Source of the DNA: an uncultured Candidatus Saccharibacteria bacterium
GTDB lineage: Bacteria; Patescibacteriota; WWE3; UBA101185; UBA10185
Length of the DNA stretch: 64,000 bases
Reading direction: 5' to 3'
NCBI GenBank assembly: GCA_964643995.1
Contig: CAZXUJ010000004.1
Location: 8,606 to 72,605, forward strand
Below, piece by piece: positions 11,179 through 50,606 of this stretch (the stretch's first letter is position 1; every line of letters starts with the position of its first letter). The notes under the pieces were generated by a model, which did not search any database, was not told where the DNA came from, and saw only the letters and a program-made list of their open reading frames with translations. A program made the position numbers and the translations under genes.

Positions 11179-11180
11179 AA

Positions 11181-11876: not shown

Positions 11877-11878
11877 GA

Positions 11879-21254: not shown

Positions 21255-21259
21255 TTTAT

Positions 21260-22825
21260 CTAATTTCCAAGAAAGTTATTTAATACTATTCTAAGTATTG
21301 TCAAAGCTAATAGCAAATATAATATTCCTGCTCCAGTGGCAGTTAAGTCTTCTGTGCCTTCTTTTAATTGGTCTGGGTTGCCTCGACTTGTCATAATTCT
21401 ATAGCCAGCAAGCGTGACTAGAGGTATTCCAGCTATCCCTATGGCTAGAGGAAGCAACAGTTTATATAAGTTTGACAGCATGCTTTCAAAGTCCACTATG
21501 GCTCCTACATAGGTGGGTGGTATGGCCTCCTCATCTTCATATGTAGTTTCGTCTGAAATTCCTCCGCTACCTGCTGTACAGTCGCAAGTGCCTCCATTAT
21601 CAGGTTCGTTAGGATTTATTGGTATACAGGTACCTCCAAAAGTACATATATCTTGACATATTTGGTCTCCTGCAACACCCACATCGCAAATAGGTTCGGC
21701 ACTAATGCATATCTGTGTGTTTGCCCATGCGTTAAACGCGCATGTTTGGCTGCTATCACAGCATGGTGTGTTTATTTGATTACACTCCTCTCCGACAGTA
21801 GCACAATTTGGTCCTGGGCCACTTCCACATACCGTATGATCAGCACATATTGGGTTTGATCCGGCCTGACAGTATTGTGTGCTTGGGCATCCGCCTATAC
21901 CACAGTCTGTGGCTTCGGGTGTACCAGTTACGGGACTAGTACAAGGTGTGCCTGTGGGGATACATTGTGCTCTATTATTGCAGGTAGGCTCTCCCCCATT
22001 ACTTTCGCATCGTTGCCCTGCGGTACACCCGCCGTCGCCACAGGTGTCGGGATCTACTGTTGTTGTATACCAGTATACTGGAGGTCCGCATGATGCCGTA
22101 CATTCTTCACGCGTATTGCATATGCCACCACCACCTAAAGTTTCACATCTTTGTGAGTCGCCACAAACGCCTTGTCCACATTGTGTAGAATCCACGGGTG
22201 ACTGGTACCAGTATGCCGGTGAACATGCTTGTTGAGCGTAGCATGCGCTTCTTGAAACACATTGGGGTGTGCCACTTCCGTTAGACTCACACCTTTGACC
22301 GGCTGCACAAGTATCCTCGCCGCATGTATCCGGTTCTACTGCCGTTTGATACCAATAAACATTAGGTCCGCATGGATTTGGTGGGGGAGGGGCGGGAGTT
22401 TGGCAGTTGGCTGCGGCTGATACAGTCTCAGTAGTGCAGTTGCCACTAGTATTACAGTACTCCCAAGTGTAGGTTATGTTTGCAACAATATCGGCTGAGT
22501 GTGTGTTCACTGTGGTTGAAAAATTCCAACCCGGTGGGCATGGTGACCCCCAGTCGCAAGTGCATCCGAAATTGGTACATGTAGCATTTCCTCCCCATCC
22601 GTCTGATTCAGAGTAGATAACACTTCCATTTCTTGTAACAACCTCTTCTACGTCTATATCGCTGTAGTAGCCCTCCTCTGGTACTAGAACGTAGTCAACA
22701 TCTATGCCACTTGCCCCTAAAGTACACTCCGTAATCTGTACGCTAACACTGCCTGCGGCATGTGCGCTTCCTAAACCATGAAACCAGAAAGTTATAAAAA
22801 ATAGAAAAATAAATAAATATTTCAT
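21260..22825 (-). CDS. secreted modular Cys-rich repeat protein with a C-terminal VirB2-like pilin domain
   Basis: 521 aa. Signal peptide, about a 120-aa N-terminal domain shared with the 436-aa paralog (…CDWGSPCP…), three ~45-aa repeats YWYxxxVxPDTCGxxxCxxGQRCESNG…C, more Cys-rich modules, then the pilin-like C-terminus (…IMTSRGNPDQLKEGTEDLTATGAGILYLLLALTILRIVLNNFLGN). Confidence 0.5.
   Translation of the reverse strand: MKYLFIFLFFITFWFHGLGSAHAAGSVSVQITECTLGASGIDVDYVLVPEEGYYSDIDVEEVVTRNGSVIYSESDGWGGNATCTNFGCTCDWGSPCPPGWNFSTTVNTHSADIVANITYTWEYCNTSGNCTTETVSAAANCQTPAPPPPNPCGPNVYWYQTAVEPDTCGEDTCAAGQRCESNGSGTPQCVSRSACYAQQACSPAYWYQSPVDSTQCGQGVCGDSQRCETLGGGGICNTREECTASCGPPVYWYTTTVDPDTCGDGGCTAGQRCESNGGEPTCNNRAQCIPTGTPCTSPVTGTPEATDCGIGGCPSTQYCQAGSNPICADHTVCGSGPGPNCATVGEECNQINTPCCDSSQTCAFNAWANTQICISAEPICDVGVAGDQICQDICTFGGTCIPINPNEPDNGGTCDCTAGSGGISDETTYEDEEAIPPTYVGAIVDFESMLSNLYKLLLPLAIGIAGIPLVTLAGYRIMTSRGNPDQLKEGTEDLTATGAGILYLLLALTILRIVLNNFLGN
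21970..22378 (-). repeat. three tandem ~135-bp coding repeats (Cys-rich module) inside the 521-aa gene
   Basis: Protein-level triple repeat PxYWYxxxVxPDTCG…GQRCESNG…C at about aa 150-285. Coordinates approximate. Confidence 0.45.
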
Positions 22826-24132
22826 AAACCTCCTAGAAAATTACGTAGGATTATTCTAAGTATAGAAAGTGCTAACAATATGTACAAAATACCTTTAACT
22901 GCTTCAGTCATATCTTCTTTACCTTCTTTTACTGCTTTAGGGTCACCTTGGCTTGTAAGAATCCTGTAGGCACCTAGTATTACTATCGGTATTCCGCCTA
23001 AACCAATTGTAAGTGGTAGCATCAACCTGTATACGTTTTGTAAAAAGCTTTCATAGTCAATAATTGGCCCCGTGTATGTTGGAGGTTCAGCAGATTCGTC
23101 CGCAATGTTTATCAAGGATCCTGGAGGAAGTGTTGCATCTGTGTTACACACGCATGTACCTCCTGCATCGGGGTTGTTTATGTCTAGTATTTCACAGCGT
23201 CCTCCTAGTGAACAGGTGCTGTTGCACTGGGAGTGTTGCCCTGGTTCGCACATGTTTCCTGAAGTGCACACCTTTGTTCCAGCATAGGGAATAAAGCTAC
23301 ATGATTGTGAAGTATCACAACAAGGTCTTGTGTTTACGTTGCAAACCTGACCAATTACAGCGCACTGGCCACCATTACATACGCTGGAAGGTACGCATGT
23401 TGGCGTCCAATTTGGTGGCCCTATTACACAGTAATCCCCGCTGCCACATCCCCCAATTCCGCAATCATCAGCTGTAGGTTGTTGTGTATATGAAACAGGA
23501 TTTGAGCATTGTCCTGGATTTCCCGCGCATACAGCAGCTGATATGCATCTTGGTTCCCAATCCGGGGCACCAATCACACAGTATGAATCAGAGGCACATT
23601 CTCCACCGCAATCGTCTATAGTAGGTGTCTGGCTATAGGGGATTGGATCTCCGCATTCATCAGGGTTAATAGGTGTTGTGCAAACCGCACTCCCCGTATA
23701 TTGCTCTGTAATAGTCGTTCCGTTTACATCGGTAAAGTCCCATGTCATTTGTACAATAGCGGTAATAGTCGCATCTTCCTCGGTTGCAGTCTCTGTAAAA
23801 TCCTGTGTGATAGGGCAAGGGGATCCCCAATCGCAAATACACCCTTGACTATCGCATATTACTGTTCCTCCCCATGCGTCTGGATAGCTGTATATTTGTG
23901 CGCCATTTTGTAGTATGGTTTCTTGGACTTGTATATCAGCATAATTGCCTGGTATTGTAACCATTTCGTAACTGATACCTAAGTTGTCTAGTCCCGTTTC
24001 ACAAGTTGTAATGTCCACATTAACACCTCCGGCAGCAAAACTGGCTCGGGGTAGAGCAACAAATAAAGAAACAAAAAATATTGATAATAGATAAAGTTTT
24101 GTGAAATTTCTCACTTTAGTAAAGTATATCAA
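22822..24132 (-). CDS. secreted modular Cys-rich repeat protein with a C-terminal VirB2-like pilin domain
   Basis: 436 aa. Signal peptide, a paralogous N-terminal domain (…CDWGSPCP…), two ~42-aa repeats (…DDCGxxxCxSGDYCVIGxPxWxPxC…), and the pilin-like C-terminus (…ILTSQGDPKAVKEGKEDMTEAVKGILYILLALSILRIILRNFLGGL). Confidence 0.5.
   Translation of the reverse strand: MIYFTKVRNFTKLYLLSIFFVSLFVALPRASFAAGGVNVDITTCETGLDNLGISYEMVTIPGNYADIQVQETILQNGAQIYSYPDAWGGTVICDSQGCICDWGSPCPITQDFTETATEEDATITAIVQMTWDFTDVNGTTITEQYTGSAVCTTPINPDECGDPIPYSQTPTIDDCGGECASDSYCVIGAPDWEPRCISAAVCAGNPGQCSNPVSYTQQPTADDCGIGGCGSGDYCVIGPPNWTPTCVPSSVCNGGQCAVIGQVCNVNTRPCCDTSQSCSFIPYAGTKVCTSGNMCEPGQHSQCNSTCSLGGRCEILDINNPDAGGTCVCNTDATLPPGSLINIADESAEPPTYTGPIIDYESFLQNVYRLMLPLTIGLGGIPIVILGAYRILTSQGDPKAVKEGKEDMTEAVKGILYILLALSILRIILRNFLGGL
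23382..23646 (-). repeat. two tandem ~130-bp coding repeats inside the 436-aa gene
   Basis: Protein-level duplicate PxxYxQxPTxDDCGxxxCxSxxYCVIGxPxWxPxCxxxxVC at about aa 163-250. Coordinates approximate. Confidence 0.4.
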
Positions 24133-30214: not shown

Positions 30215-31144
30215 ATGAAAAATGTGGTTAATCCCCATGGTCGCCAAAACGGCGGTAGCCGTGGCGACCATATTAAACTAGATAATACCGTTTTTTATGA
30301 CCGCAAAAAATTAAGGGGTGAAAAAGTGCTTCATAATGGCAAAACTTATGAAGTAAGTAGACTCAAAGTAATAAAATCCAAAGACACAATAGAAGTGTAT
30401 GACTATGAAAAGCCCGTTATCCTAAACCAGCCACATTTTAAGACCAAATTAGACAAGCCCTTGGATGAACTACCCCCTGAACTTAGGGCAAAGATTGAAA
30501 AGGAAAAGCAAAGCAGAAAAGCTGAATACAAAAAGCGAAGTGCAATAAACGCTATCAATAACATAAGGCGACTTGTTGATTGTAACTTTAACAGCAAAAG
30601 CAAATTTGTAACCCTAACTTTTGCAGATACAAACAAAATTGATATCAGGGATATTAAACAAACTCATGGGGTTTTTAAGCGATTTATTCAACGCCTTAAA
30701 ACATATTTTCCTAAACTTAAATATGTCGCGATTCCAGAGTTTCAAGACAAAAAGCAAAGGGGTGCAATTCATTACCACATGATTAGTAATCTTTTATATA
30801 CTCCAAATGAGACATTAGCCAAAATCTGGCGATATGGTTTTGTAAACATTAAATCCATTGAACATGTATCAAATATTGGTGCATATTTAGCAAAGTATCT
30901 CGCTAAAGATATTGATGATAATCGCTTTGGTAGTGCTAAAAAAGTATTAAGAAGTAAGTATCTTGAACACCCACAAGTGGAATACAGTAAAAACGCTTTA
31001 AAGATAATTAACAAATATAACTTAAGAAATCGCCAGCCAATTTATGTTAAAAAGTACAAAAGTGAAATGCATGGTGGTAATATATCCATAAGTTTGTTTG
31101 ATTTAAAAAACCCTATCCTGCCCACTAAGGATAGTAATGACTGA
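30215..31144 (+). CDS. rep: rolling-circle replication initiator (HUH endonuclease, pC194/Rep_1-like)
   Basis: 309 aa. Motif I FVTLTF, motif II AIHYHMIS (HUH), and motif III GAYLAKYLAKDIDD with the catalytic Tyr, matching the pC194-family pattern. Confidence 0.7.
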   Translation: MKNVVNPHGRQNGGSRGDHIKLDNTVFYDRKKLRGEKVLHNGKTYEVSRLKVIKSKDTIEVYDYEKPVILNQPHFKTKLDKPLDELPPELRAKIEKEKQSRKAEYKKRSAINAINNIRRLVDCNFNSKSKFVTLTFADTNKIDIRDIKQTHGVFKRFIQRLKTYFPKLKYVAIPEFQDKKQRGAIHYHMISNLLYTPNETLAKIWRYGFVNIKSIEHVSNIGAYLAKYLAKDIDDNRFGSAKKVLRSKYLEHPQVEYSKNALKIINKYNLRNRQPIYVKKYKSEMHGGNISISLFDLKNPILPTKDSND

Positions 31145-32666
31145 AAATAATCAACTTAAATATTTTATTTATACTAGAAAATCCTCTGATGAAGGCAATA
31201 AGCAAGTTCAATCTTTAGAGACTCAAGAAAGGCTTTGTTTTGAACTGGCTAAAAATAATAACTTAACTGTTGTTGATATTCTTAAAGAGTCAAAATCTGC
31301 TATGGATGATGGTAATAGACCAACTTTTGATTTGTTAATTTCAAGAATTAAATCAGGCGAAGCGGATGCATTAATTGTTGTTGATATTGATAGACTAGCA
31401 AGAAATCTTGTTGAAGCAGGATTTTTATACAAGTTAATGGAAACAGGGTTTATCAAAGAAATTAGAACTCTTAGCAAGAATTTTAATGCTGTATCAGACT
31501 TGTTTTACATGGGATTTGAGTTTTTGAGGGCAACACAATATTCAAGGGATTTATCAGTTAAAGTTAAGCGTGGTGTTCAAACTAAACTCTTAAATGGGGA
31601 ATATCCAAGTTATGCCCCTATTGGTTATGTAAATATTGATAGAAAGATTTATCCCGACCCTATCAGAAGTGTGTATATCAAAAAGGCTTATGAACTATAC
31701 GCCACAAATACTTATTCAGAAAAAGCACTTGCTAATATTCTTTTTGAAGATGGCTTTAGAACGCGTGTAGGAAATATAAAAGTTGTTAAGGCAGTAATTC
31801 ATAGAATATTAACTGACCCTGTATATCGTGGAGATATTAAACGCAGTGGAGTGATTTATGAGGGTATACATGAGGGAATTGTTAGCCGAGAACTGTTTGA
31901 ACGAGTACAAGCTGTTTTAAAGGGCAAGAATAGGGCTAAAAAGCGTACACATGACTTTTTGTATAGGGGTTATCTAACATGTGCTGTCTGTGGTTGTAAT
32001 ATTACTGCTACTCAAAAGGGAGATAAATACAAATATTATTACTGTACCAATGGCAAAGGACTGTGTAGTGAACACAAAGACTACTTAGATGAAACTGATA
32101 TACAAGACTTAGTAGCATCGTCTTTTACTGGCATTATCAAAGATAAAAAACTAGCTGATTTATCTTTAGAAACTTATGGCAAAGAACTGTTAGAACAAGG
32201 AGGAAACCAAATAACCATAAAACAAAACTTAGAAAGCCAACTTAAAAACATTGAAAACAAGCTTTCTAACTTACTAGACGCATTTATTGATAATTCCATT
32301 GATAAAACTACATATAACAACAAACAAAACACATTAAAGTCAGAAAAATTGCTTATCCAAGAACAACTCGCCAAGCTTCCAAAAGAAACCCCACAAACAA
32401 CTTTGGAAAAACTGAAAACCCTTAAAGAATACTGTTATGACTTGCCAAACATGTTTATTGAGGGTGAAGAACCAGTTAAATCTGATTTATTGAAATCTGT
32501 ACTTTGGAAAATATCTATTCAAAACAAACAAATAGCGTCAGTACAATATAATTTGCCCTATCAAAGACTGGCAGAAGCCTCTAAAAGTGGTGATTTTGAC
32601 AACTGGCGGAGAGGGAGGGATTCGAACCCTCGTGCGAGTTACCCCGCGCATAGTTTTCGAGACTAG
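31137..32666 (+). CDS. large serine recombinase (integrase)
   Basis: 509 aa. N-terminal resolvase catalytic domain (YTRKSSDEG… with the Ser nucleophile, …DIDRLARN…), a recombinase domain, a zinc-ribbon (CAVCGC…CTNGKGLC), and a coiled-coil C-terminus. The ORF reads 63 nt into the tRNA gene. Confidence 0.8.
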   Translation: MTENNQLKYFIYTRKSSDEGNKQVQSLETQERLCFELAKNNNLTVVDILKESKSAMDDGNRPTFDLLISRIKSGEADALIVVDIDRLARNLVEAGFLYKLMETGFIKEIRTLSKNFNAVSDLFYMGFEFLRATQYSRDLSVKVKRGVQTKLLNGEYPSYAPIGYVNIDRKIYPDPIRSVYIKKAYELYATNTYSEKALANILFEDGFRTRVGNIKVVKAVIHRILTDPVYRGDIKRSGVIYEGIHEGIVSRELFERVQAVLKGKNRAKKRTHDFLYRGYLTCAVCGCNITATQKGDKYKYYYCTNGKGLCSEHKDYLDETDIQDLVASSFTGIIKDKKLADLSLETYGKELLEQGGNQITIKQNLESQLKNIENKLSNLLDAFIDNSIDKTTYNNKQNTLKSEKLLIQEQLAKLPKETPQTTLEKLKTLKEYCYDLPNMFIEGEEPVKSDLLKSVLWKISIQNKQIASVQYNLPYQRLAEASKSGDFDNWRRGRDSNPRASYPAHSFRD

Positions 32667-32693
32667 CCAATTAGACCACTCTTGCACCTCTCC
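32604..32693 (-). tRNA. tRNA-Ser (anticodon CGA), type II with a long variable arm, CCA encoded
   Basis: Hand-folded: acceptor GGAGAGG/CCTCTCC, discriminator G plus CCA. D-stem CAA/TTG with a GG in the loop. Anticodon loop CTCGAAA. Variable arm TGCGCG…CTCGCA. T-arm GAGGG-TTCGAAT-CCCTC. Confidence 0.7.
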
Positions 32694-36413: not shown

Positions 36414-37364
36414 TTAGGGTTTTTCAACCTCACTCTTACCCAACATCCCCGCCAAAGCTCCGGTACCTTTTACCACGTTTGCTGAGTTTTTCGCAGACCA
36501 GTCCATGGCTACTTCAAGAGTTTTCCCATAGTTCAGTGCTGATACAAATGTTGTGGCGTAGGTGTCTCCAGCACCGGTTTTGTTTACGATTTTGTCCACA
36601 GTTAGGGCCGGTTTTACTACAACTTTGGAACCATCGTATGCGCTTGCGCCTTTAGCACCATCTGTGATTACAGTTAGTTTGGCGCCAAGTTTATGTAAGC
36701 CTTCATGTAGCAAGCGCCCTTCAACATCATCTTTTATTTCCAAGATTTTCTTAGCTTCTTCTTTGTTTACAAATAAAACATCTACTATTTGCAAGAACTC
36801 TTTAACTTTGTTTAGATTTGTAAGTTGTATCGAGCCAGGGTTATATGCGACACCTATATCATCAGAGGCTTTTATGTATTTAACTAGATTATTTTGAAAT
36901 TCTTCGTATCCATGGGCTAAAGAAGTGTAGTAAATCCATTTAGGCTTTTCTGCTCCTTTGAGGTGTTCAAAATCCAGATGGTATTTTCGAGGTTCGTGAT
37001 AAGAAAAGATCGTTCTTTCTCCAGCATGCAAAATTATTGTATGCACGTTTGTATTTGTGTTTTTTGCTTGTCTACATAGTTTTGTATCAATTCCTTCGGT
37101 TTTGAATGTTTTTATAAATTTATCTCCATAGTCATCGTCTCCTAGTTCTGTGTAAATTCCTACTTTTAGTCCAAGACGTGCAGCTCCTACTCCAACATGA
37201 CAAGAGTTTCCAGCGAGATTTGCATAGAATTTATCAACCACAATTTTGCTTCCATGTAGAAAGCATATTCTTTGTTCTTGGGTGCTTGGGTCGTTTAAAA
37301 CCGCAGAATCTTCAATATCCATGTATTGATCTACTGAGCAGTCACCGATTACTAATAAATCCAT
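36414..37364 (-). CDS. PfkB-family carbohydrate/nucleoside kinase (ribokinase-like)
   Basis: 316 aa. N-terminal GG motif region, C-terminal …TGAGDTYATTFV… (PfkB signature 2). Confidence 0.75.
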   Translation of the reverse strand: MDLLVIGDCSVDQYMDIEDSAVLNDPSTQEQRICFLHGSKIVVDKFYANLAGNSCHVGVGAARLGLKVGIYTELGDDDYGDKFIKTFKTEGIDTKLCRQAKNTNTNVHTIILHAGERTIFSYHEPRKYHLDFEHLKGAEKPKWIYYTSLAHGYEEFQNNLVKYIKASDDIGVAYNPGSIQLTNLNKVKEFLQIVDVLFVNKEEAKKILEIKDDVEGRLLHEGLHKLGAKLTVITDGAKGASAYDGSKVVVKPALTVDKIVNKTGAGDTYATTFVSALNYGKTLEVAMDWSAKNSANVVKGTGALAGMLGKSEVEKP

Positions 37365-37366
37365 AT

Positions 37367-37642
37367 TTAAAAAGGTTGTATGTAAGTACTTTCGAGCAAA
37401 GGATCCAGAAACATAGCCACTATAACTATTTTAGACATTGTATAGGTTACTGTTCCTACCAACATAGACAGCATGACTTTGGTCGACGGTTGTACGTGTT
37501 TAAAAACGCGATGCATGGCAAAGTAGGTGCCTGCAACGATAAATGTGATTGTGAAAAATTCTATTATTGTCACGAGCGGGGAGTTTACAAGAACTTGTAT
37601 GAGTTTTGCGTCAAATATTTCCATGAAACAATTATTGCACAA
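37367..37642 (-). CDS. small membrane protein (hypothetical)
   Basis: 91-aa hydrophobic ORF overlapping the tktC 3' end by 11 nt. Weak. Confidence 0.25.
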   Translation of the reverse strand: MCNNCFMEIFDAKLIQVLVNSPLVTIIEFFTITFIVAGTYFAMHRVFKHVQPSTKVMLSMLVGTVTYTMSKIVIVAMFLDPLLESTYIQPF

Positions 37643-38606
37643 TTTTTTCTAAAATATTATGTTGTGCTATACCGTACTTATCCTTAAGCTGATTGTATTC
37701 TCCTGATTTGGTAAACACGTCGTCAACACCAAGTATAGTTAATGGCGTTGGGAGTTGTTGTGATAGTAGCTCTGCCACCGCGCTACCTAAGCCCCCGATT
37801 TTATGATGTTCTTCAACTGTTAAGACTTTTTTGGTTTTTCTAACTGACTCGAGAATTGTTTTGGTGTCTAAGGGCTTGATAGTCGAACAATTAATAACTT
37901 CACAACTTATTTTATGTTTTTCAAATGCTTGGTTAGCGGCACCAAGTGCATCATATACGCTTGGTCCTGTGGCAATAATTGTTAAATCAGTACCCTCAGC
38001 TAGGATTTGCGCCTTTCCTATTTCAAAAGGTGTTTCATTAGTTGTGAAAATTGGAAGATCTACTTTGGAATATCTTAGATAAACTGGTCCATCGTGAGCA
38101 GCCGCGGCAAATACTGCTTTTTTCGTCTCTAGTGCGTCTGCTGGAGATAAAATCAATAAATTAGGTAGTGAGCGCATCATTGCTAAGTCTTCGAGAGCAT
38201 GATGTGTTGCGCCATCAGGTCCATTACTTAAACCTAAATGAGATGAACATATTTTGACGTTTGAATGTGAGTAGCATATCGAAACTTTTATTTGATCCCA
38301 ATTACGTCCTGGGCTAAAAACGCCAAAAGAAGTCATAAATGGTATTTTTCCGCTCAATCCTAGCCCCGCGGCAATTCCTGCCATGTTCTGTTCGGCGACG
38401 CCTACTTGGAAAAATCTTTTTGGGAATTTCTTGGCAAATTTAATGGCTTTTGTTGATTCTGACAGGTCGGCACTTAAAACAACTACATCTTCGTTTTGTC
38501 CGCCTAATTCGGCCAAGGCTTCTCCAAAGGCGTCTCTACCTGTACCAGTATCAATAGTTGGCATAAAAAGTTTATGGGCAAGCTTCAGGTTTTTATTTAG
38601 GTTCAT
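37632..38606 (-). CDS. transketolase, C-terminal (pyrimidine-binding) subunit
   Basis: 324 aa. …TRDAFGEAL…, …FQVGVAEQNM…, …HLGLSNGPDGATHHALEDLAMMR…. Confidence 0.85.
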   Translation of the reverse strand: MNLNKNLKLAHKLFMPTIDTGTGRDAFGEALAELGGQNEDVVVLSADLSESTKAIKFAKKFPKRFFQVGVAEQNMAGIAAGLGLSGKIPFMTSFGVFSPGRNWDQIKVSICYSHSNVKICSSHLGLSNGPDGATHHALEDLAMMRSLPNLLILSPADALETKKAVFAAAAHDGPVYLRYSKVDLPIFTTNETPFEIGKAQILAEGTDLTIIATGPSVYDALGAANQAFEKHKISCEVINCSTIKPLDTKTILESVRKTKKVLTVEEHHKIGGLGSAVAELLSQQLPTPLTILGVDDVFTKSGEYNQLKDKYGIAQHNILEKIVQ

Positions 38607-38608
38607 CT

Positions 38609-39196
38609 TTACTCAGTAACGCTTGGTGTCGCTTCTTCAGTTTCGCATTCTACGTTATTTTTAACTCTTTCAAAATCCAGAACTTTATCGGTCTTTGATA
38701 TAACCGCTAAGTCTACTGCCACATTGGCGACTGTATCATACTCATCTAAGCATTCGTCGTCAGGCTCGGTTTCCTCTACCAAAATCTTAAAATTACCAGA
38801 TTCTTCATCTTCGGTAACTTTTTTTATCTTTATTTCGTACCCATATGTCGCATTTGTCTCAGTGGAAACACCAATCAGATACTCCTTGTCAAAGTTTACA
38901 TTTTCTTTGAGGGTTAATTTTCTAGCAGGATCTACCTTATTTAAAAACTCACTAAGTTGGGTTTCGTTAGTGATGATAACTCTTTGCTTTTCCATCACCC
39001 CTACGTCACTTACTATGGTAGGGAAGCCTTCCAAACGTGTGAGTTCGGTGGCATCTCTTCTAAATTTAGGAAGTTTAATTTCGCCTCTCAACAAAAAGTA
39101 TCCTGCCCCTATAAGCACAGCTACCAAAGCCAAAATTGGAAGTATAGTTGCATATAAAATTTTCCCATCTTCTTTGTTAGTTTTATTCATAGTCAT
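38609..39196 (-). CDS. single-TM membrane-anchored protein (hypothetical) interposed between the transketolase subunit genes
   Basis: The ORF extends to 39331, but the likely start is MTMNKTNKEDGKILYATILPILALVAVLIGAGYFLL at 39196. Acidic C-terminal domain with CxxxxxxxxC. Confidence 0.4.
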   Translation of the reverse strand: MTMNKTNKEDGKILYATILPILALVAVLIGAGYFLLRGEIKLPKFRRDATELTRLEGFPTIVSDVGVMEKQRVIITNETQLSEFLNKVDPARKLTLKENVNFDKEYLIGVSTETNATYGYEIKIKKVTEDEESGNFKILVEETEPDDECLDEYDTVANVAVDLAVISKTDKVLDFERVKNNVECETEEATPSVTE

Positions 39197-40070
39197 GCCA
39201 TTTAATTCTGCCTTCCAGTGTCCTAAGTTGTTTAAGAGCCTCTGCCGCCTGCTCTTTGTTAGGAGACCTTCCGTGCCATTCAAATTTATACTGCATAAAG
39301 GGCACATCTTTGCCAGGAATCGTGTGTGCAATTATTGCTGTTGGCCTTTCGAAAATGGTTTTGGCCATATTGCATGCATTAATAATCTCTTCTATGTTGT
39401 GTCCATCAACCTCCAGAACATACCACTGAAAAGCTTCGAGCTTTTCGCGTAAAGGTTCCAAAGGCATAATATCCTCGGTATAACCGTCAATTTGAATATT
39501 ATTTCTGTCAATAATCCAGGTTAAATTATTTAACCTTCTATTACCTGCGAACATTGCTGCTTCCCAGGTTTGTCCTTCATTTAACTCGCCATCACTTCCC
39601 AAACAATAAACTCTATTTTGTAAATCGTCTAACTTTGATGCAAGTGCAATGCCTATTGCTTGTGACAAACCTTGCCCCAAAGGTCCGCCGCTATTTTCTA
39701 TACCGGGGAGCCTTTTAGCATGGGGATGTCCCTGCAAGCGGGAGTCCAGTTTTCTCAGAGACCTAAGCTCTTTTTCTGGAAAAAATCCCTTCATTGCCAA
39801 AGTTGCATACCAAATTGGACAAATATGCCCATTAGACAAAACTACCCTGTCTCTATCAGGGTATTCAGGTCTGCTTGGGTCAATATTTAAAATGTGAAAG
39901 TATAATGCTGCGAAAACGTCGGCCATGCCAAGTGATCCAGCACTGTGCCCAGACTTTGCCTCGAGTAACATGTCAATCACGTTTTCCCTTAGTTTTGTAG
40001 CAATAATCTGTAAATTAGCTACCTCATCGTTCTTACAATAAGAAATAGTCTCTTTATTCTGGGGCATCAT
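39183..40070 (-). CDS. transketolase, N-terminal (TPP-binding) subunit
   Basis: 295 aa. …SGHSAGSLGMADVFAALY…, …GSDGELNEGQTWEA…. Confidence 0.85.
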   Translation of the reverse strand: MMPQNKETISYCKNDEVANLQIIATKLRENVIDMLLEAKSGHSAGSLGMADVFAALYFHILNIDPSRPEYPDRDRVVLSNGHICPIWYATLAMKGFFPEKELRSLRKLDSRLQGHPHAKRLPGIENSGGPLGQGLSQAIGIALASKLDDLQNRVYCLGSDGELNEGQTWEAAMFAGNRRLNNLTWIIDRNNIQIDGYTEDIMPLEPLREKLEAFQWYVLEVDGHNIEEIINACNMAKTIFERPTAIIAHTIPGKDVPFMQYKFEWHGRSPNKEQAAEALKQLRTLEGRIKWHDYE

Positions 40071-40354
40071 CGTTCAGTATATGACGTTTCACACAGCATC
40101 GCAACTTTCGGAGTTTGTTCGGGTACAATCTGTGATCTAACTGTTAACACATTTTACTATTGATGTTAGGTCCCATAGTGTGCTATGTTAGAGGTGTTTT
40201 ACTTACCCAATTCAGAAGTACCTACATAACTGGAGGCAAGCAATGAGTGATAGCACCAGGCGACAACGGCATCGAGCAAAATCTCGTATGCATGATTTGG
40301 TTAAGGCAATAAACTATACACTGTGGTATCTAGGGCTACGCCCATACCCTGTGT

Positions 40355-40573
40355 ATGAAGAGGACGAAAATGCCTGATGTAACTTGGATTATGTATGTTC
40401 CGTGTGGGCTTTTGATTTTGTTAGGTTTTCCTGTGCTCTTTTTCACTTCGAAAACGAAGCGAAAGCGGCAAGGACGCAACCATGCAGTGAAAGAACACCA
40501 GCGTGGTGGACCTGTAGATGGCACCCACCGTGGTCAAGGTTCTCCTGATCGTGGTGGTCCTGGTTCCCGCTAG
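40355..40573 (+). CDS. small ORF (hypothetical) in a GC-rich patch
   Basis: 72 aa, one TM, then a Gly/Arg-rich tail. Very weak support. Confidence 0.2.
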   Translation: MKRTKMPDVTWIMYVPCGLLILLGFPVLFFTSKTKRKRQGRNHAVKEHQRGGPVDGTHRGQGSPDRGGPGSR

Positions 40574-40687
40574 AAATTTTTTTGAGACAGACTCGCTTGG
40601 GTGTGTAACACCTAGTTTTAATTTAAATGACCATTTTTAAGTTAAAGCAATTTGTTGCACACCCAAACATCATCGGCTTAGGTGTTG

Positions 40688-41896
40688 CTAAACTATAGTT
40701 TCTATTTTTTCCAAAGATTTTATGTAGTCCAGAACTTCTTGTGGAGTGGTGCAAATACGCAAAATATGTTCTTCACCGTTTTTGAGGTACATATAGTTTT
40801 TCATATAGTCTACAAAGTGTTTCCAAAAATCCCCATATAAAACCACAGGCTTATTGTTAGGTTCGTGAATCCATGAACTAACCCAACTCATACCAAGTTC
40901 ACTCAATGTTCCAATGCTTCCATTAAAAACTATATGCATATCTACAGCTTGTAACATGACTTTTGTTCTATCGAAGTAGTCTAAAGTTTTCACCTCTTCA
41001 TCAAAGGTATTTTCAAGGTCTACACCTTCATAATGTCTCTTAGGCTTATTTGGGTGGTAAGTTATTGCAAGAGATTTCCCTCCTCCCGCATGCGCTCCCT
41101 TTGTTGAAGCTCTCATTACACCCGGGCCGCCTCCGTTAACTACTTGATATCCGTTTTCGGCTAAAAGTTTGGCAACATCGAAAGCATCTTTGTATGCTTG
41201 ATCGGTATCTTTCCACGCGGCGCCACCTAGAAACGCTATCTTTTTGATCTTTTGCATTTTGTTAAGGGATAAGTGCACTGCTTGTATAAGGTCTCGGTAG
41301 GCTTGCTTTGGGTCTGGTGTGCCAAATATTGCTGATCCTACAACCATATCGTCTACCCCTGCATCTAAAATACTGTCTAGCGTTTGAATCGTTACACCAC
41401 CATCGACTTTACACATCATGCTAGGAAAGGCAACCTTAAACTTTTTAATTTTGGGAAGTACCTCGCTAATAAATCTTTGTCCCTGTTTACCGGGATTTAT
41501 TGTCATGAATTGTACATAATCTATACGATGTGCATGCGGCCAAAGTGCATCAATATCAGTTTCAGGGTTAATGGCAATTCCAACCTGATAACTATTTCTC
41601 CTGCAATTTTCAATAAAAGCATCAATTTCATCTTTTCTTTCGATATGGGCAATAACTGCAGTGACATTTTTGATTTTGTCTTCAACAAACCTGGCCGGAT
41701 GCTCGACCATGAGGTGTAGCTCTACGTGAGCTCTAGTCTCTACATTATTTAACTGCTTTACGTCTAGAAAGGTTTTTCCTTCTACAAAATGTCCATCCGT
41801 AATATCTATCTGAACATTTTCTGCAACATCATCTATCACATCCAGCTTTTTTCGTACTTCTTCAAAATCTTTTTCGAGAATTCCGGGGAAAATCAT
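40688..41896 (-). CDS. rpe: fusion protein: ribulose-phosphate 3-epimerase (N-terminal) plus LOG-family nucleotide 5'-monophosphate nucleosidase domain (C-terminal)
   Basis: 402 aa. Rpe motifs …DITDGHFV… and …KVDGGVTIQT…. Then LOG/TIGR00730 motifs …VVNGGGPGVMRA… and …VFNGSIGTLSEL…. Confidence 0.7.
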   Translation of the reverse strand: MIFPGILEKDFEEVRKKLDVIDDVAENVQIDITDGHFVEGKTFLDVKQLNNVETRAHVELHLMVEHPARFVEDKIKNVTAVIAHIERKDEIDAFIENCRRNSYQVGIAINPETDIDALWPHAHRIDYVQFMTINPGKQGQRFISEVLPKIKKFKVAFPSMMCKVDGGVTIQTLDSILDAGVDDMVVGSAIFGTPDPKQAYRDLIQAVHLSLNKMQKIKKIAFLGGAAWKDTDQAYKDAFDVAKLLAENGYQVVNGGGPGVMRASTKGAHAGGGKSLAITYHPNKPKRHYEGVDLENTFDEEVKTLDYFDRTKVMLQAVDMHIVFNGSIGTLSELGMSWVSSWIHEPNNKPVVLYGDFWKHFVDYMKNYMYLKNGEEHILRICTTPQEVLDYIKSLEKIETIV

Positions 41897-42333
41897 TGGT
41901 CAATTTCATCAATTTTTTTAAGTCGTCTAACGTGTCTTTCATCGCCACTAAAGTCTGTTGACAACCAGCCATGGACAACGTTTAGGGCTTCTTCTCTTGT
42001 CAAAAAGTCTGCAGGAATAGCAAGTACATTTGCTGCGTCGTCGTTTCGGCTCGACTGTGCATGTTCTTTCGACCATGATAGTGCGCAACGTATGCCTTTA
42101 AACTTATTTGCGAGCACACTTACTCCGACGCCGTTTCTACAAATCAATATTGCCATGTTTTCAGGATTTTTCTGAACTTCCTGCATTGTTGGAACAACAT
42201 AATCAGGGTAATCATCATCGGGAATTAACTCTGTAGGTCCCATATCTTTGACCTCGATACCTTTTCGTTCTAAATAGGTAATGATGTCACCTTTGTACTT
42301 GAAACCACCGTGATCTGAGGCAATGTAGAGCAT
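41893..42333 (-). CDS. rpiB: ribose-5-phosphate isomerase B
   Basis: The ORF extends to 42351, but the likely start is MLYIASDHGGF… at 42333. …ICRNGVGVSVLANK… is typical of RpiB/LacAB. 4-nt overlap with the rpe-LOG start. Confidence 0.7.
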   Translation of the reverse strand: MLYIASDHGGFKYKGDIITYLERKGIEVKDMGPTELIPDDDYPDYVVPTMQEVQKNPENMAILICRNGVGVSVLANKFKGIRCALSWSKEHAQSSRNDDAANVLAIPADFLTREEALNVVHGWLSTDFSGDERHVRRLKKIDEIDQ

Positions 42334-42943
42334 ATGCAATAAGTATACCAATTATCAAGGCTAAGGAAAGTGTCTGTGTTACATTCAGCCCATTTATAGT
42401 CCAATGTTCTTGTCGTGTATTTTCAAGAAGTATTCTAACTAGGGCATATCCACCGACATATACTGCAAATATAACCCCGTTAGGGTTGAACCATTTCTTT
42501 ATGTAACCTATCTGTATTACAGCGAACAGCATCAGATTTAACCACATCTCATAATAAGCAAATGGAAGCAGCTCATTGTTAAAAATATTACCTATACGGC
42601 CGATTGCTTGCCCAAGTGGTAGATACAGCACTGCTAAGTCCAACCATATAAAAATGTTTTGCTTTTTTACCTTAAGAAAAATACTCACAGCCAATGTTGC
42701 ACAAATCAATCCTCCAAGTATCCCAAGGCCTCCTTGCCACACATAAAAAACTTCCAAAAGATGCAGTTGATAATAGTCCCAGTAATCAATCACATGATAG
42801 GTGCGTGCACCGAAAACACCAAAACATATAACAATCAGCAATCCATCCCAAAAGACTTCAGAAGATAACTTTTTGTGTTTAAGTTGTTTTTCTGTGAGAA
42901 GTGCCCCGACTAGGATACCTAGGGAGATCATTATTCCGTACAT
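42287..42943 (-). CDS. lgt: prolipoprotein diacylglyceryl transferase
   Basis: 218 aa. Lgt signatures …GARTYHVI…, …GGLGILGGLI…, …GQAIGRIGNIFNNEL…. Confidence 0.7.
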   Translation of the reverse strand: MYGIMISLGILVGALLTEKQLKHKKLSSEVFWDGLLIVICFGVFGARTYHVIDYWDYYQLHLLEVFYVWQGGLGILGGLICATLAVSIFLKVKKQNIFIWLDLAVLYLPLGQAIGRIGNIFNNELLPFAYYEMWLNLMLFAVIQIGYIKKWFNPNGVIFAVYVGGYALVRILLENTRQEHWTINGLNVTQTLSLALIIGILIAYALHCLRSRWFQVQR

Positions 42944-49607: not shown

Positions 49608-50606
49608 CTATATTTCACTTATTACGTCAAACCCTTTATAGCTTCCCACAATCGCTAGTCCGAATACTTTTTTGGCGACGCCTTCATCTTTTAGTTTTTT
49701 GGCAACTTCATTCATTGATGCTCCAGATCCAACTGCATCATCAAGTAGTAGAACGTTTTTAAACTTTACTGATGCGTCTTTGATGTGAATAGATGAACGT
49801 GCATTTTGTATTCTTTCCTCAAGTTTGCTGAGTGTTTTTTGTGCTACTGGAAAATCACCTTTGTATGCTTTAACCAAAGTTATTTTAGGTATTTTGATAG
49901 TTAGATTTTTTTCGAGTTCTTTCAGAAATTGAATCTTTCTCGGTATTGTAGGTGGGATTATGCCTAACGCATTAATCTTATGTTTTTTAATGATTTCGTG
50001 TACCTTATCGTTTACTTCTGTTGAAATACCTTTTATTAATTTTGGTTGTTGTCCTTGTTTGGAGTATAGAACAAGTTGCCCCAGTCGTGTTTTCCCAAAT
50101 TTTGGCAGACTATAAAAATCCATAAAATAAACTTCATCTATTGCCAGATTTTCATCGAATGTACTGTTTAACTTTTGCGTTGCATTTATCAGCCCAATTG
50201 AATTTCTATGCCTCCCTACATCCTTCATTATCTTCACGTATTCATTCATTAAGGTGTGTATACGAGGGGACATTTTTATATTAGCTACCCATTTTTGAAA
50301 ACCCTCAAAGCCATATAGTAACTCTCCAGAAGGGGACACCCACAAGTAGTTATCATCGATAAAGCTACTTGCTTTTGATTGAGGTGCATCTTGTACAGTA
50401 ATGGCGGTATCACTTTCATTAATTTCATAAAAAACCAGCGGTGCTTTGCCTAGTTTTGTCACGGCCTCTTCTTCTTGAAGATTTTTGAGGTGTCTATGTA
50501 TGATTTGCCTGCTTAGCCCAAACTCTCTACTTAGCTCTTCTATACGAGCTTTTTTGTGCTTTGCAAGGTAATCTATCAGTTTGGATTTGGTATTTCGAAA
50601 CCCCAT
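49608..50606 (-). CDS. winged-HTH domain plus phosphoribosyltransferase (ComF-like PRTase) domain protein
   Basis: 332 aa. N-terminal HTH (…ARIEELSREFGLSRQIIHRHLKNL…). C-terminal PRTase motif VLLLDDAVGSGASM. Confidence 0.5.
   Translation of the reverse strand: MGFRNTKSKLIDYLAKHKKARIEELSREFGLSRQIIHRHLKNLQEEEAVTKLGKAPLVFYEINESDTAITVQDAPQSKASSFIDDNYLWVSPSGELLYGFEGFQKWVANIKMSPRIHTLMNEYVKIMKDVGRHRNSIGLINATQKLNSTFDENLAIDEVYFMDFYSLPKFGKTRLGQLVLYSKQGQQPKLIKGISTEVNDKVHEIIKKHKINALGIIPPTIPRKIQFLKELEKNLTIKIPKITLVKAYKGDFPVAQKTLSKLEERIQNARSSIHIKDASVKFKNVLLLDDAVGSGASMNEVAKKLKDEGVAKKVFGLAIVGSYKGFDVISEI

Follow-up and report, generated by a model that had tools for sequence, protein, structure and literature searches.

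An Rpe-LOG fusion in a pentose phosphate operon of WWE3 bacteria as a candidate entry point for nucleotide-derived ribose-5-phosphate

Why are a ribulose-phosphate 3-epimerase (Rpe) and a LOG-family domain joined in one protein, and might this protein supply ribose-5-phosphate (R5P) from nucleotides to the pentose phosphate operon around it? An earlier note on this DNA had described a single Rpe-LOG ORF of 402 aa. Direct reading of the window (the whole stretch of DNA analysed, 64,000 nucleotides) confirmed one unbroken frame at 40688..41896 on the minus strand, free of ambiguous bases and closed by a stop codon at 40688-40690, and all four quoted motifs (DGHFV, KVDGGV, GGGPGVM, and NGSIGTLSE) are found in its product. 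The protein matches three Pfam families, each above the gathering cutoff. In Foldseek searches with its AlphaFold model (pLDDT 91.4), the N-terminal half resembles RPE structures and the C-terminal half LOG structures, and both domains are upheld by profiles as well as by fold. Most relatives have two genes that are separated by only 7-120 nt, so a single indel could yield an apparent fusion, and a sequencing or assembly frameshift uniting two genes had been named as an alternative. This explanation is refuted for practical purposes. The identical 402-aa protein occurs in several independent assemblies (NCBI, Logan, ENA), the full-length two-domain architecture recurs in at least 120 protein clusters at 43-100% identity, and 18 species-representative genomes carry the fusion. 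A continuous linker, which varies in length and sequence across the alignment, joins the two halves in relatives of 77%, 75%, and 64% identity and in over 100 additional clusters; comparison with split-gene junctions places M214 of the fusion at the start codon of separate LOG genes. A triple RpiB-Rpe-LOG form also exists (P0082). A literature search found no earlier description of the Rpe-LOG arrangement.

The fusion is only one state of a more widely conserved arrangement. The rpe gene lies directly upstream of LOG in 78 of 80 species-representative loci, a set retrieved by searching with the entire fusion and hence biased toward loci with both halves, and LOG lies directly downstream of rpe in eight of nine contexts from an unbiased sample of relatives picked solely for the resemblance of their LOG, with identities as low as 32%. 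Among 78 WWE3 and Microgenomates species genomes with both halves, the genes are fused in 18 and adjacent but separate in 60, and the two states are interleaved on the LOG tree. The conserved unit is the rpe→LOG gene pair within the operon, which hundreds of related genomes retain, not the fusion, and fusion and fission are recurrent. Thus, the physical coupling that the earlier note had read from the fusion is optional. Neighbours of the pair include rpiB, tkt, pfkB, fba, DeoC, PGK, and GAPDH.

In the window, the operon has the order rpiB–rpe–LOG–tktN–(unknown)–tktC–pfkB, with all genes on the minus strand (Table 1); the flanking rpiB, split transketolase, and PfkB kinase are present as originally listed. 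Translation of rpiB likely begins at the ATG at about 42333, and in the DNA its TGA stop and the start codon of the fusion gene share bases (ATGA), which suggests translational coupling. This pentose phosphate context is real and strongly conserved across related loci: rpiB adjoins rpe in 74 of 80, and tktN, tktC, and pfkB were found in 72, 66, and 59 of them, respectively, with a class II aldolase next in 23. A non-conserved gap of 617 bp separates the fusion from tktN. The ORF between the transketolase halves likely starts near 39196 (MTMNK...) and has an N-terminal hydrophobic segment; counterparts occur in 55 of the 80 loci, among them proteins of 173-201 aa at the same place in L001, L003, and L008. 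The kinase retains the GAGD catalytic motif of the PfkB family. However, its best NCBIfam match, ribokinase TIGR02152, scores 99.7 bits, far below the cutoff of 299.65, and in an alignment to ribokinase 4x8f the ribose-contact motif GGKGANQ is replaced by AGNSCHV. On these residues the kinase is no clear ribokinase, and the proposed ribose salvage is unproven.

Table 1. Features of the rpe-LOG operon (positions are those of the window).
Feature	Position	Strand	Basis
PfkB-family sugar/sugar-phosphate kinase	36414..37364	-	PF00294 E 5e-35
tktC, C-terminal half (pyrimidine-binding + C-terminal domain) of split transketolase	37632..38606	-	PF02779 E 4e-42; PF02780 8e-33
ORF between the two tkt halves	38609..39331	-	ORF list; Pfam and NCBIfam profile searches: no Pfam family, only a weak PrcB match
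tktN, N-terminal (thiamine-diphosphate-binding) half of split transketolase	39183..40070	-	PF00456 E 2e-57; NF004559 positions 11-281 of 627
LOG/SLOG domain, aa 219-402	40691..41242	-	PF18306, PF03641, type-II LOG alignment, Foldseek
Linker, aa 196-218	41243..41311	-	Predicted helix aa 196-211 + short variable segment
Rpe domain, aa 1-195, (beta/alpha)8 barrel	41312..41896	-	PF00834, 3ovp alignment, Foldseek
rpiB (ribose-5-phosphate isomerase B)	41893..42351	-	PF02502 E 4e-42; TIGR00689 152.5 bits > cutoff 88.3

The Rpe half matches PF00834 (Ribul_P_3_epim) over aa 2-191 (E 2.9e-41; 141.5 bits, cutoff 21.1) and superimposes on RPE structures with TM scores of 0.84-0.86 (rmsd 2.3 Å, about 32% identity). 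It shares with canonical RPE (human 3ovp; S. pyogenes 2fli) the TIM-barrel fold, the catalytic/ligand Asp pair (D31 and D165 in the alignment to 3ovp), one His ligand (H61), the Met cushion residues, and the phosphate-binding Gly/Ser loops. In contrast to the canonical enzyme, the first metal-ligand His is Gln (Q29; Gln in 68 of 74 loci), the second is Asp in 11 of the 74-78 loci counted, the Ser in the N-terminal PSIL motif varies, and the equivalog TIGR01163 is missed (128.9 bits, cutoff 212.6). Given the altered metal site, epimerase activity, too, is a prediction. Within its operon, which it shares with rpiB and tkt, this Rpe evolves faster than any other enzyme.

The best Pfam match of the LOG half is the uncharacterised family PF18306 (SLOG cluster4; aa 220-339, E 6.2e-16), followed by PF03641 (LOG/'lysine decarboxylase'; aa 261-391, E 4.8e-11). 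A DprA-type fold, the other alternative named in the earlier note, is contradicted by the lack of any PF02481 match of this half in the Pfam search and by its closest PDB relatives, the type-II LOGs TtLOGII/TT1465 (1wek, E 3e-13) and CgLOGII/Cg1261 (5wq3, 5e-11). In Foldseek, the half also matched the AMP-bound LOG 5zbl (TM 0.82), type-II LOGs, and YgdH. TtLOGII and CgLOGII hydrolyse AMP to adenine and R5P in vitro (PMC5379747). The fold, the GGGPGxM motif (GGGPGVM, aa 255-261), the catalytic Arg and Glu (R310 and E333, aligned with Arg155 and Glu178 of CgLOGII), and the phosphate-binding Thr (T330, aligned with Thr175) are common to these enzymes and the fusion; E290 is a candidate ribose-binding residue. 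R310, E333, T330, G326, G329, GGG255-257, and M261 are invariant in all 80 loci. However, the signature N325-G-S-I-G-T-L-S-E333 conforms to [KNR]G[SG]xGTxSE instead of the usual PGGxGTxxE (PGGFGTLDE in type-II LOGs); the Pro and the second Gly are absent, and the acidic residue that touches adenine, D177 in CgLOGII and Glu in type I, is consequently gone, with Ser in 79 of 80 loci. The phosphate-contact Ser of type-I LOGs is Gly or Phe, and W338, H/Y321, and H/Y344 are invariant. The half also scores below the NCBIfam cutoffs of TIGR00730 (59.6 versus 96.35) and TIGR00725, and the position of the free N-terminal hexamerisation helix of type-II LOGs is held by the Rpe C-terminal/linker helix. 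Judged by its sequence, the LOG half is a divergent LOG subfamily which, unlike type-II LOGs, is encoded after rpe in a pentose phosphate operon, in some cases as one fused gene. Its remodelled signature and altered adenine and phosphate contacts mean that its substrate may differ from standard nucleoside 5'-monophosphates (NMPs); both its nucleosidase activity on NMPs and its choice of base are accordingly putative. No gene of the operon is better conserved than LOG (median identity 65%, versus 64% for TktN, 51% for RpiB, and 39% for Rpe), which exceeds Rpe in all 74 loci compared. Close relatives of the domain also occur fused to unrelated effectors, namely a methyltransferase, a GT2 glycosyltransferase, and a trypsin-PDZ protease.

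Another relative, PpnN/YgdH, is the (p)ppGpp-stimulated NMP nucleosidase of E. coli and related bacteria. It has the same LOG fold and Arg/Glu mechanism, and its structure 9us2 ranks among the top matches of the LOG half by both fold and sequence. The physiological role of PpnN is to free R5P and bases from several NMPs, which ties nucleotide pools to R5P-consuming metabolism (PMC10311079). In contrast, the fusion lacks the PAG1 and PAG2 regulatory domains and alarmone control, has Ser-Glu in place of the Glu-Glu pair (E263, E264), and is linked to rpe and tkt, as PpnN is not. Its NCBIfam PpnN match is negligible (15.7 bits, cutoff 450).

A reading that we hold with middling confidence is that the fusion is a bifunctional enzyme whose LOG half, a candidate nucleotide 5'-monophosphate phosphoribohydrolase, gives R5P to the non-oxidative pentose phosphate operon. 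This domain would cleave the N-glycosidic bond of NMPs, obtained by scavenging (e.g., from RNA turnover or lysed biomass), to free base and R5P. RpiB, encoded just upstream with suggested translational coupling, would turn part of the R5P into ribulose-5-phosphate (Ru5P), which the N-terminal Rpe domain would convert to xylulose-5-phosphate (Xu5P). The split transketolase would receive R5P straight from LOG and Xu5P via RpiB and Rpe, and carbon would flow onward to GAP/F6P and fermentation. The fusion may be an evolutionarily labile means to secure 1:1 stoichiometry of both proteins, possibly in one oligomer. However, the LOG step (NMP to R5P) and the Rpe step (Ru5P to Xu5P and back) are not consecutive because RpiB lies in between, so direct channelling between the fused domains is not an obvious rationale. 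The interpretation first offered for this locus is partly supported, in that the domains, the context, and the host physiology hold. A comparable whole-chain architecture is the 3-hexulose-6-phosphate synthase/6-phospho-3-hexuloisomerase fusion 9lj9, in which a barrel of the same ribulose-phosphate-binding superfamily is joined to an alpha/beta sugar-phosphate domain, but the match is weak (Foldseek TM 0.41-0.46, rmsd 13 Å), the second domain is a SIS isomerase instead of a LOG, and its two activities are consecutive steps. This synthase/hexuloisomerase pair of the RuMP pathway also exists fused and unfused.

The retained catalytic dyad in a remodelled pocket, from which the adenine-contact Asp/Glu, the motif Pro, and the phosphate-contact Ser have been lost and in which W338, H/Y321, and H/Y344 are fixed, would also suit catalysis on something other than ordinary NMPs. 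The substrate could be a different phosphoribosyl N-glycoside, be it dNMP, NMN, or a nucleotide that is modified or derived from ADP-ribose, or else a non-nucleotide sugar phosphate. The latter would fill an activity missing from a pentose phosphate pathway that is reported to lack transaldolase and PFK in these lineages (PMC7143001). LOG is also the operon's best-conserved gene and is placed between rpe and tkt, and a DeoC-family aldolase in one cluster (L090) hints at deoxyribose-5-phosphate. Yet all characterised LOG-family enzymes are N-glycosidases of NMPs, the retained Arg, Glu, and Thr are the residues that serve the ribose-OH, water activation, and the 5'-phosphate in NMP hydrolysis, and aldol or ketol chemistry is without precedent on this fold, K312 not being conserved in Microgenomates; we thus regard a different substrate as rather unlikely.

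Loss of the base-specific acidic contact could also mean that the domain is a non-catalytic sensor that binds nucleotide or R5P and tunes Rpe or the pathway. SLOG domains are ligand sensors in other systems, as proposed for the SLOG superfamily, the top Pfam match is to such an uncharacterised cluster, and the effector fusions of close relatives would agree with this role. A pure sensor would, however, be unusual in keeping Arg and Glu invariant in 80 of 80 loci despite more than 60% sequence divergence; in most genomes LOG is a separate protein, free of Rpe, and its conservation exceeds that of every enzyme under its supposed control, all of which makes regulation a distinctly improbable function. 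A classical cytokinin-activating LOG (N6-prenyl-AMP to cytokinin base), with incidental rpe adjacency or fusion, would explain family membership by fold and profile and the weak NCBIfam match to cytokinin riboside 5'-monophosphate phosphoribohydrolase (39.7 bits, cutoff 300). It is highly improbable given the missing acidic adenine contact, the sugar-phosphate operon in CPR bacteria of groundwater, sediment, and digesters, the lack of cytokinin-synthesis genes near related loci, and the strict rpe linkage over very divergent lineages in the LOG-only sample.

Release of R5P from NMPs, the reading preferred here, fits the host. The nucleotide-scavenging, biosynthetically reduced organism that had been postulated is a member of WWE3, a CPR lineage auxotrophic for nucleotides; in WWE3 as in Microgenomates, nucleotide biosynthesis is missing and nucleases are numerous (PMC3812714). 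Hexokinase, PFK, and transaldolase are missing from both as well, and where the carbon of their pentose phosphate pathway comes from has been described as unclear (PMC7143001; PMC7304191); R5P is the exact entry metabolite of the rpiB-rpe-LOG-tkt operon. Nucleotide ribose likewise reaches central carbon metabolism in reduced CPR bacteria through the archaeal/CPR AMP pathway (DeoA, E2b2, form III RuBisCO; PMC6389311; PMC3812714). That pathway is not homologous and makes R15P by phosphorolysis and 3-PGA by carboxylation, in place of hydrolysis to R5P and transketolase rearrangement, and WWE3 is absent from the lineages named as its carriers in PMC6389311. Destruction of nucleotides by a nucleotide auxotroph needs a rationale, for example an excess RNA-derived supply with re-salvage of the bases. 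If the reading is true, the rpe-LOG pair hints at how CPR bacteria with tiny genomes feed their sugar metabolism from nucleotides.

The proposed fusion of ribulose-phosphate 3-epimerase (Rpe) to a LOG-family domain is a single 402-aa reading frame, and both of its domains score above the Pfam gathering cutoffs. PF00834 covers aa 2-191 (E = 2.9e-41), followed by PF18306 at aa 220-339 (6.2e-16) and PF03641 at aa 261-391 (4.8e-11). Both halves are also recognized by NCBIfam, yet below its stricter cutoffs. The neighbors named in the earlier note, which are rpiB, a split transketolase (tktN and tktC), and a PfkB kinase, were matched by Pfam and NCBIfam as well, and in the DNA the TGA stop of rpiB overlaps the start codon of the fusion gene (ATGA).

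Positions of the features discussed in the text, counted from the start of the window
Feature	Position	Strand	Profile match or remark
dnaA	4389-5786	-	
Type IV secretion-like block	8947-13318	-	
TraG/VirB4-type P-loop ATPase	8947-11178	-	
PrgI-family protein	11879-13318	-	
ORFs upstream of the replication initiator	20382-24132		GC up to 0.42-0.46
Replication initiator	30215-31144	+	REP_ORF2-G2P
Large serine recombinase	31137-32666	+	
tRNA-Ser(cga)	32604-32693	-	
PfkB kinase	36414-37364	-	PF00294, 121.8 bits
tktC, C-terminal half of split transketolase	37632-38606	-	Transket_pyr + Transketolase_C
ORF between the tkt halves	38609-39331	-	no Pfam family
tktN, N-terminal half of split transketolase	39183-40070	-	Transketolase_N
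Gap between fusion and tktN, 617 bp	40071-40687		
Antisense 72-aa ORF in the gap	40355-40573	+	hydrophobic segment, Arg/Gly-rich tail
Rpe-LOG fusion, 402 aa	40688-41896	-	PF00834 + PF18306 + PF03641
rpiB	41893-42351	-	RpiB profile
332-aa protein	49608-50606	-	weak ArsR-type HTH + phosphoribosyltransferase domain

The same architecture (PF00834 plus PF18306/PF03641) was found in at least 120 clusters with 43-100% identity and 98-100% query coverage in a search of approximately 5.8 billion proteins, and exactly this 402-aa sequence was recovered from several assemblies made independently (NCBI, Logan, ENA). These full-length clusters and independent copies rule out a frameshift or assembly artefact. 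Assignment of the C-terminal half to DprA or another SLOG family was also rejected, because PF02481 is unmatched and the nearest relatives in both sequence and fold are LOGs. Based on source names and a scan of species-representative genomes, the fusion family belongs to the candidate division WWE3 (Katanobacteria), and members at about 35% identity were found in the Microgenomates lineages Collier-, Shapiro-, and Curtissbacteria. Public databases label the protein 'ribulose-phosphate 3-epimerase', 'LOG family protein', 'TIGR00725 family', or 'hypothetical', and each current annotation thus overlooks one half of it. An AlphaFold2 model built from an alignment of 106 sequences has a mean pLDDT of 91.4, and its pTM (0.64) is in line with two clearly resolved domains placed with uncertainty relative to each other.

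In the Rpe half (aa 1-195), PF00834 is matched at profile positions 2-198 of 198 with 141.5 bits (gathering cutoff 21.1), but the NCBIfam cutoffs are missed (NF004076, 141.6 vs 165 bits; equivalog TIGR01163, 128.9 vs 212.6 bits). This half is thus a member of the Rpe family but not an equivalog. Its predicted (beta/alpha)8 barrel (pLDDT approximately 95 over aa 1-200) was aligned by Foldseek with 3ovp, 3ovq, 1h1y, and 2fli at TM(target) 0.84-0.86 and rmsd 2.3-2.5 Å (E = 2e-14). The metal site of RPE consists of His-Asp-His-Asp (human H35, D37, H70, and D175), and both Asp residues act as acid/base catalysts. According to the alignment, D31, H61, and D165 of the window protein correspond to human D37, H70, and D175; the first ligand, H35, is replaced by Gln (Q29), which leaves the canonical residue at three of four ligand positions. 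Both catalytic aspartates are retained in the related loci (D31 in 74/74, D165 in 78/78). Position 29 is Gln in 68 of 74 loci, His in five, and Glu in one, and position 61 is His in 62 loci, Asp in 11, and Gln in two (codons of Q29 and H61 at window positions 41810-41812 and 41714-41716; related loci L010-L089). Gln at position 29 could still ligate a metal, and the unusual Gln/Asp site could alter metal preference or oxidant sensitivity. The Rpe half, which shares its operon with rpiB and transketolase, is predicted to interconvert the sugar phosphates Ru5P and Xu5P. This draws attention to a line of Rpe enzymes in which a metal-ligand position is unusually taken by Gln or Asp.

The LOG half (aa 219-402) passes the Pfam thresholds (PF03641, 43.4 vs 27 bits; PF18306, SLOG cluster4, 58.8 vs 26.3 bits) but misses the cutoffs of TIGR00730 (59.6 vs 96.35 bits) and TIGR00725 (46.1 vs 106.9 bits), which marks it as a divergent LOG subfamily. 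In Foldseek it resembles the type-I CgLOG with AMP (5zbl; TM 0.82, rmsd 2.7 Å) and also 9us2 (YgdH), 5zi9, 5wq3, and 1wek (TM 0.71-0.78, probability 1.00). Among solved structures, the type-II LOGs TT1465 (E = 3e-13) and Cg1261 (5e-11) are its nearest relatives; both were shown to hydrolyze AMP to adenine and ribose-5-P (PMC5379747). The catalytic residues of Cg1261 (CgLOGII) are Arg155 and Glu178, with Thr175 as the phosphate-binding residue and Asp177 in contact with adenine (PMC5379747). The counterparts of the first three (R310, E333, and T330 of the fusion) are each present in 80/80 related loci. The acidic adenine contact ahead of the catalytic Glu, which is Asp in type II and Glu in type I (PMC5379747, PMC4979012), is not kept and is replaced by S332, with Ser in 79/80 loci. 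Similarly, the Ser that contacts phosphate in type-I LOGs (PMC4979012) is Gly or Phe in the rpe-linked family. The motif PGGxGTxxE, described as highly conserved in all LOG subgroups (PMC5379747), is absent in its strict form: the window protein reads NGSIGTLSE and the family [KNR]G[SG]xGTxSE. Among the 80 loci the core G..GT..E is invariant, position 1 is K, N, R, or I but never P, position 3 is S in 58, G in 19, and A in three, and position 8 is S in 79. A signature of a non-Pro residue, GT-x-S-E, and then Trp is common to approximately the 50 closest 50%-identity clusters and separates the rpe-linked LOGs from canonical type-II LOGs (FPGGFGTLDE) and TIGR00725-like proteins. A new LOG subfamily is thus defined by the diagnostic signature [KNR]G[SG]xGTxSE...W. 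The invariant catalytic residues together with the altered base contacts suggest, at the level of sequence, that the catalytic apparatus is preserved and that the part of the pocket recognizing the base has been remodeled.

The linker (aa 196-218) contains a predicted helix (aa 196-211) that precedes the first LOG strand. In type-II LOG hexamers, an extra N-terminal alpha1 helix builds a six-helix bundle. Type-II structures align with the model over 205-213 columns including this helix, but with an rmsd of 10-13 Å. Close relatives of the rpe-linked LOG are fused to a SAM methyltransferase, a GT2 glycosyltransferase, and a trypsin-PDZ protease (protein records P0159, P0271, and P0151). Such unrelated partners indicate reuse of the LOG scaffold in other contexts, and some of these fusions may be gene-call chimeras.

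Fused and split forms of the pair were compared in the 80 best species-representative loci from WWE3 and Microgenomates. This set was picked with the full fusion as query and is therefore biased toward loci with both halves; in it, rpe lies directly upstream of the LOG gene in 78/80 loci. Only 18 of the 78 pairs form a single ORF. The halves are in different frames in 44 and in the same frame with intervening stops in 16. The latter have ordinary TAA, TAG, or TGA stops followed by a new Met and are plain separate genes, which argues against readthrough or recoding. Locus L008 shows the split state in the same neighborhood: rpe (208 aa) ends at TAA, and the LOG gene (232 aa, 63% identical) begins with its own ATG 7 nt after that stop in another frame. 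In a neighbor-joining tree of the LOG half, fused and split states are interleaved. The fused loci L020 and L021 fall within a tight clade of split loci, and the window fusion is sister to the split L032. The tree is rough and lacks support values, but these contrasts between close relatives are independent of its deep branches. This pattern implies that the stop between the halves was lost or gained repeatedly, and with 60 of 78 loci split, the fusion cannot be regarded as an ancestral, conserved state. The earlier proposal that it physically couples nucleotide breakdown to the pentose phosphate pathway (PPP) therefore stands only in part: the fusion is real, but the halves are separate genes in most loci and the LOG and Rpe steps are not consecutive.

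A search with the LOG half alone yielded apparently stand-alone relatives. In nine relatives selected by LOG similarity only (63% down to 32% identity), an unbiased complement to the 80-locus set, rpe was immediately upstream in eight, and the sole exception is a 1.4-kb contig. Gene orders among these relatives are rpe-LOG-tktN-tktC-DeoC-x-PfkB (L090), FBA-rpiB-rpe-LOG-PfkB (L092), rpiB-rpe-LOG-PfkB (L094), and rpiB-PGK-GAPDH-rpe-LOG (L096). The clustering with a DeoC-family (deoxyribose-phosphate-type) aldolase (L090, 3194-3961) or with PGK and GAPDH (L096, 1425-3436) ties rpe-LOG to the breakdown of nucleoside sugars and to lower glycolysis. Within the operon LOG shows the strongest conservation, with a median identity to the window protein of 65%, followed by TktN (64%), TktC (52%), RpiB (51%), PfkB (43%), and Rpe (39%), the fastest-evolving enzyme; LOG conservation exceeds that of Rpe in 74/74 loci. 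At least three records outside the window (P0082, P0135, and P0139) even contain a triple fusion RpiB-Rpe-LOG of 554 aa. The same 90%-identity cluster also holds separate RpiB (147 aa) and Rpe-LOG (401 aa), and the triple fusion is thus a labile variant rather than a stable architecture. As a whole, rpe-LOG illustrates how genes of pathway partners have fused and split repeatedly in nature.

Fusion proteins at 47-50% identity share the recurring gene order lgt-rpiB-rpe/LOG-tktN-(173-200-aa unknown)-tktC-pfkB. The gap between the fusion and tktN has no ncRNA or tRNA match (Rfam at gathering thresholds, ARAGORN), and neither the gap nor its antisense ORF has a blastn or tblastn counterpart among the 80 related loci; it is thus not part of the feature. 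At this junction, several relatives carry an insertion that varies between 0.4 and 2.7 kb, and others carry none. In 55/80 loci the gene of a conserved protein (about 170-200 aa) separates the tkt halves (counterparts in L001, 11182-11733; L003, 10035-10556; L008, 7598-8203). The ORF in the window has an N-terminal hydrophobic segment and a weak PrcB-like match. Its fixed place inside tkt suggests a functional link, and to our knowledge a connection of this protein to transketolase is nowhere described.

Annotation of the PfkB gene as ribokinase was not supported, because its TIGR02152 score (99.7 bits) is below the equivalog cutoff (299.65) and the ribose-binding motif GGKGANQ reads AGNSCHV in the alignment with ribokinase 4x8f. 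PfkB counterparts occur in L008 (10207-11097), L092 (395-1243), and the P0061 locus. In 23/80 loci the gene after PfkB encodes a class II fructose-bisphosphate aldolase. Considering this pairing and the reported lack of transaldolase and PFK, both enzymes could form a sedoheptulose-7-P kinase/aldolase bypass of the missing transaldolase. PfkB would alternatively be a candidate S7P/F6P kinase in a transaldolase-free route.

Elsewhere in the window, dnaA is followed by a type IV secretion-like block with a TraG/VirB4-type ATPase and a PrgI-family protein. The replication-initiator gene precedes a large serine recombinase gene, which overlaps a tRNA-Ser(cga) on the opposite strand, and this region (30215-32693) resembles a mobile element or prophage that has integrated at the tRNA gene. 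The ORFs upstream of the initiator have an elevated GC content and no Pfam matches. A few kb from the operon, the 332-aa protein combines its weak N-terminal HTH with a C-terminal phosphoribosyltransferase domain and may act as a regulator responding to PRPP or nucleobases, or else in salvage.

The known reaction of LOG-family enzymes is NMP + H2O -> base + ribose-5-P (PMC5379747, PMC4979012), and the other enzymes of the operon all interconvert sugar phosphates starting from ribose-5-P (R5P). The hosts lack nucleotide biosynthesis and encode many nucleases (PMC3812714), and they have no hexokinase, PFK, or transaldolase (PMC7143001). The reading best supported by this R5P-based operon, the LOG reaction, and the metabolic gaps of the hosts is that LOG is the entry enzyme, and we would give it about an even chance. 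From the conserved catalytic residues and the operon's R5P input we infer that the LOG half would convert NMPs to the base plus ribose-5-phosphate, and that R5P released from scavenged nucleoside monophosphates would feed the operon. RpiB and Rpe would turn part of the R5P into Xu5P, which transketolase would combine with the remaining R5P. Because the LOG and Rpe steps are separated, tunneling between the fused active sites is not an obvious benefit; instead, the fusion would secure equimolar output of the enzymes supplying both transketolase substrates, and co-assembly is possible. Both RPEs and type-II LOGs assemble from dimers into oligomers. That fused and split forms interconvert so freely suggests that Rpe and LOG already cooperate when separate.

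The main reservation on LOG as entry enzyme is the remodeled base pocket, in which Ser replaces the base-contact acid, Pro is missing, and a Trp and a His are invariant. With such a pocket the LOG half might act on another phosphoribosyl substrate or have a novel activity, an option that we consider unlikely. The rpe-linked LOGs of WWE3 and Microgenomates might even, rather than being ordinary NMP nucleosidases, constitute a new class of enzymes built on the LOG scaffold that uses another phosphoribosyl or deoxyribosyl substrate or fills in a reaction missing from the CPR version of the PPP, which lacks transaldolase and PFK, in an obligate complex with Rpe. Such a complex, if true, would explain both the free fusing and splitting of the genes and the top conservation of LOG; this proposal appears rather doubtful to us. 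The altered pocket would also accommodate a sensor, but a catalytic dyad that never varies and the very high conservation of LOG make that role quite improbable, and a classical cytokinin-activating enzyme is very unlikely.

If LOG is the entry enzyme, its nearest precedent in concept is PpnN of E. coli, also a LOG-family nucleosidase making R5P, and at the pathway level the route through AMP phosphorylase and RuBisCO in other CPR lineages (PMC6389311). CPR reconstructions contain a 'lower' non-oxidative pentose phosphate gene cluster but do not say how it is fed, since sugar importers, like hexokinase, PFK, transaldolase, and nucleotide biosynthesis, are largely absent (PMC3812714, PMC7143001, PMC7304191). 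This cluster was already described for WWE3 (PMC3812714) and Microgenomates (PMC7143001). A LOG gene is mentioned in neither study, and PfkB is depicted as ribokinase; the carbon input to the pentose phosphate/glycolysis core was described as unclear (PMC7304191). No earlier account of the Rpe-LOG fusion or linkage was found in open-access papers. New here is a LOG subfamily, defined by its context and a diagnostic motif, that is recurrently fused to a divergent Rpe. Hundreds of species encode this strongly conserved LOG-type hydrolase between rpe and tkt, and plausibly it supplies the missing input of the well-known 'incomplete' CPR pathway. It is a candidate answer to how this pathway is fed: simple hydrolysis would bring NMPs into central carbon metabolism in the form of ribose-5-phosphate, which would retain the phosphate ester at zero ATP cost and require no RuBisCO-based AMP pathway.
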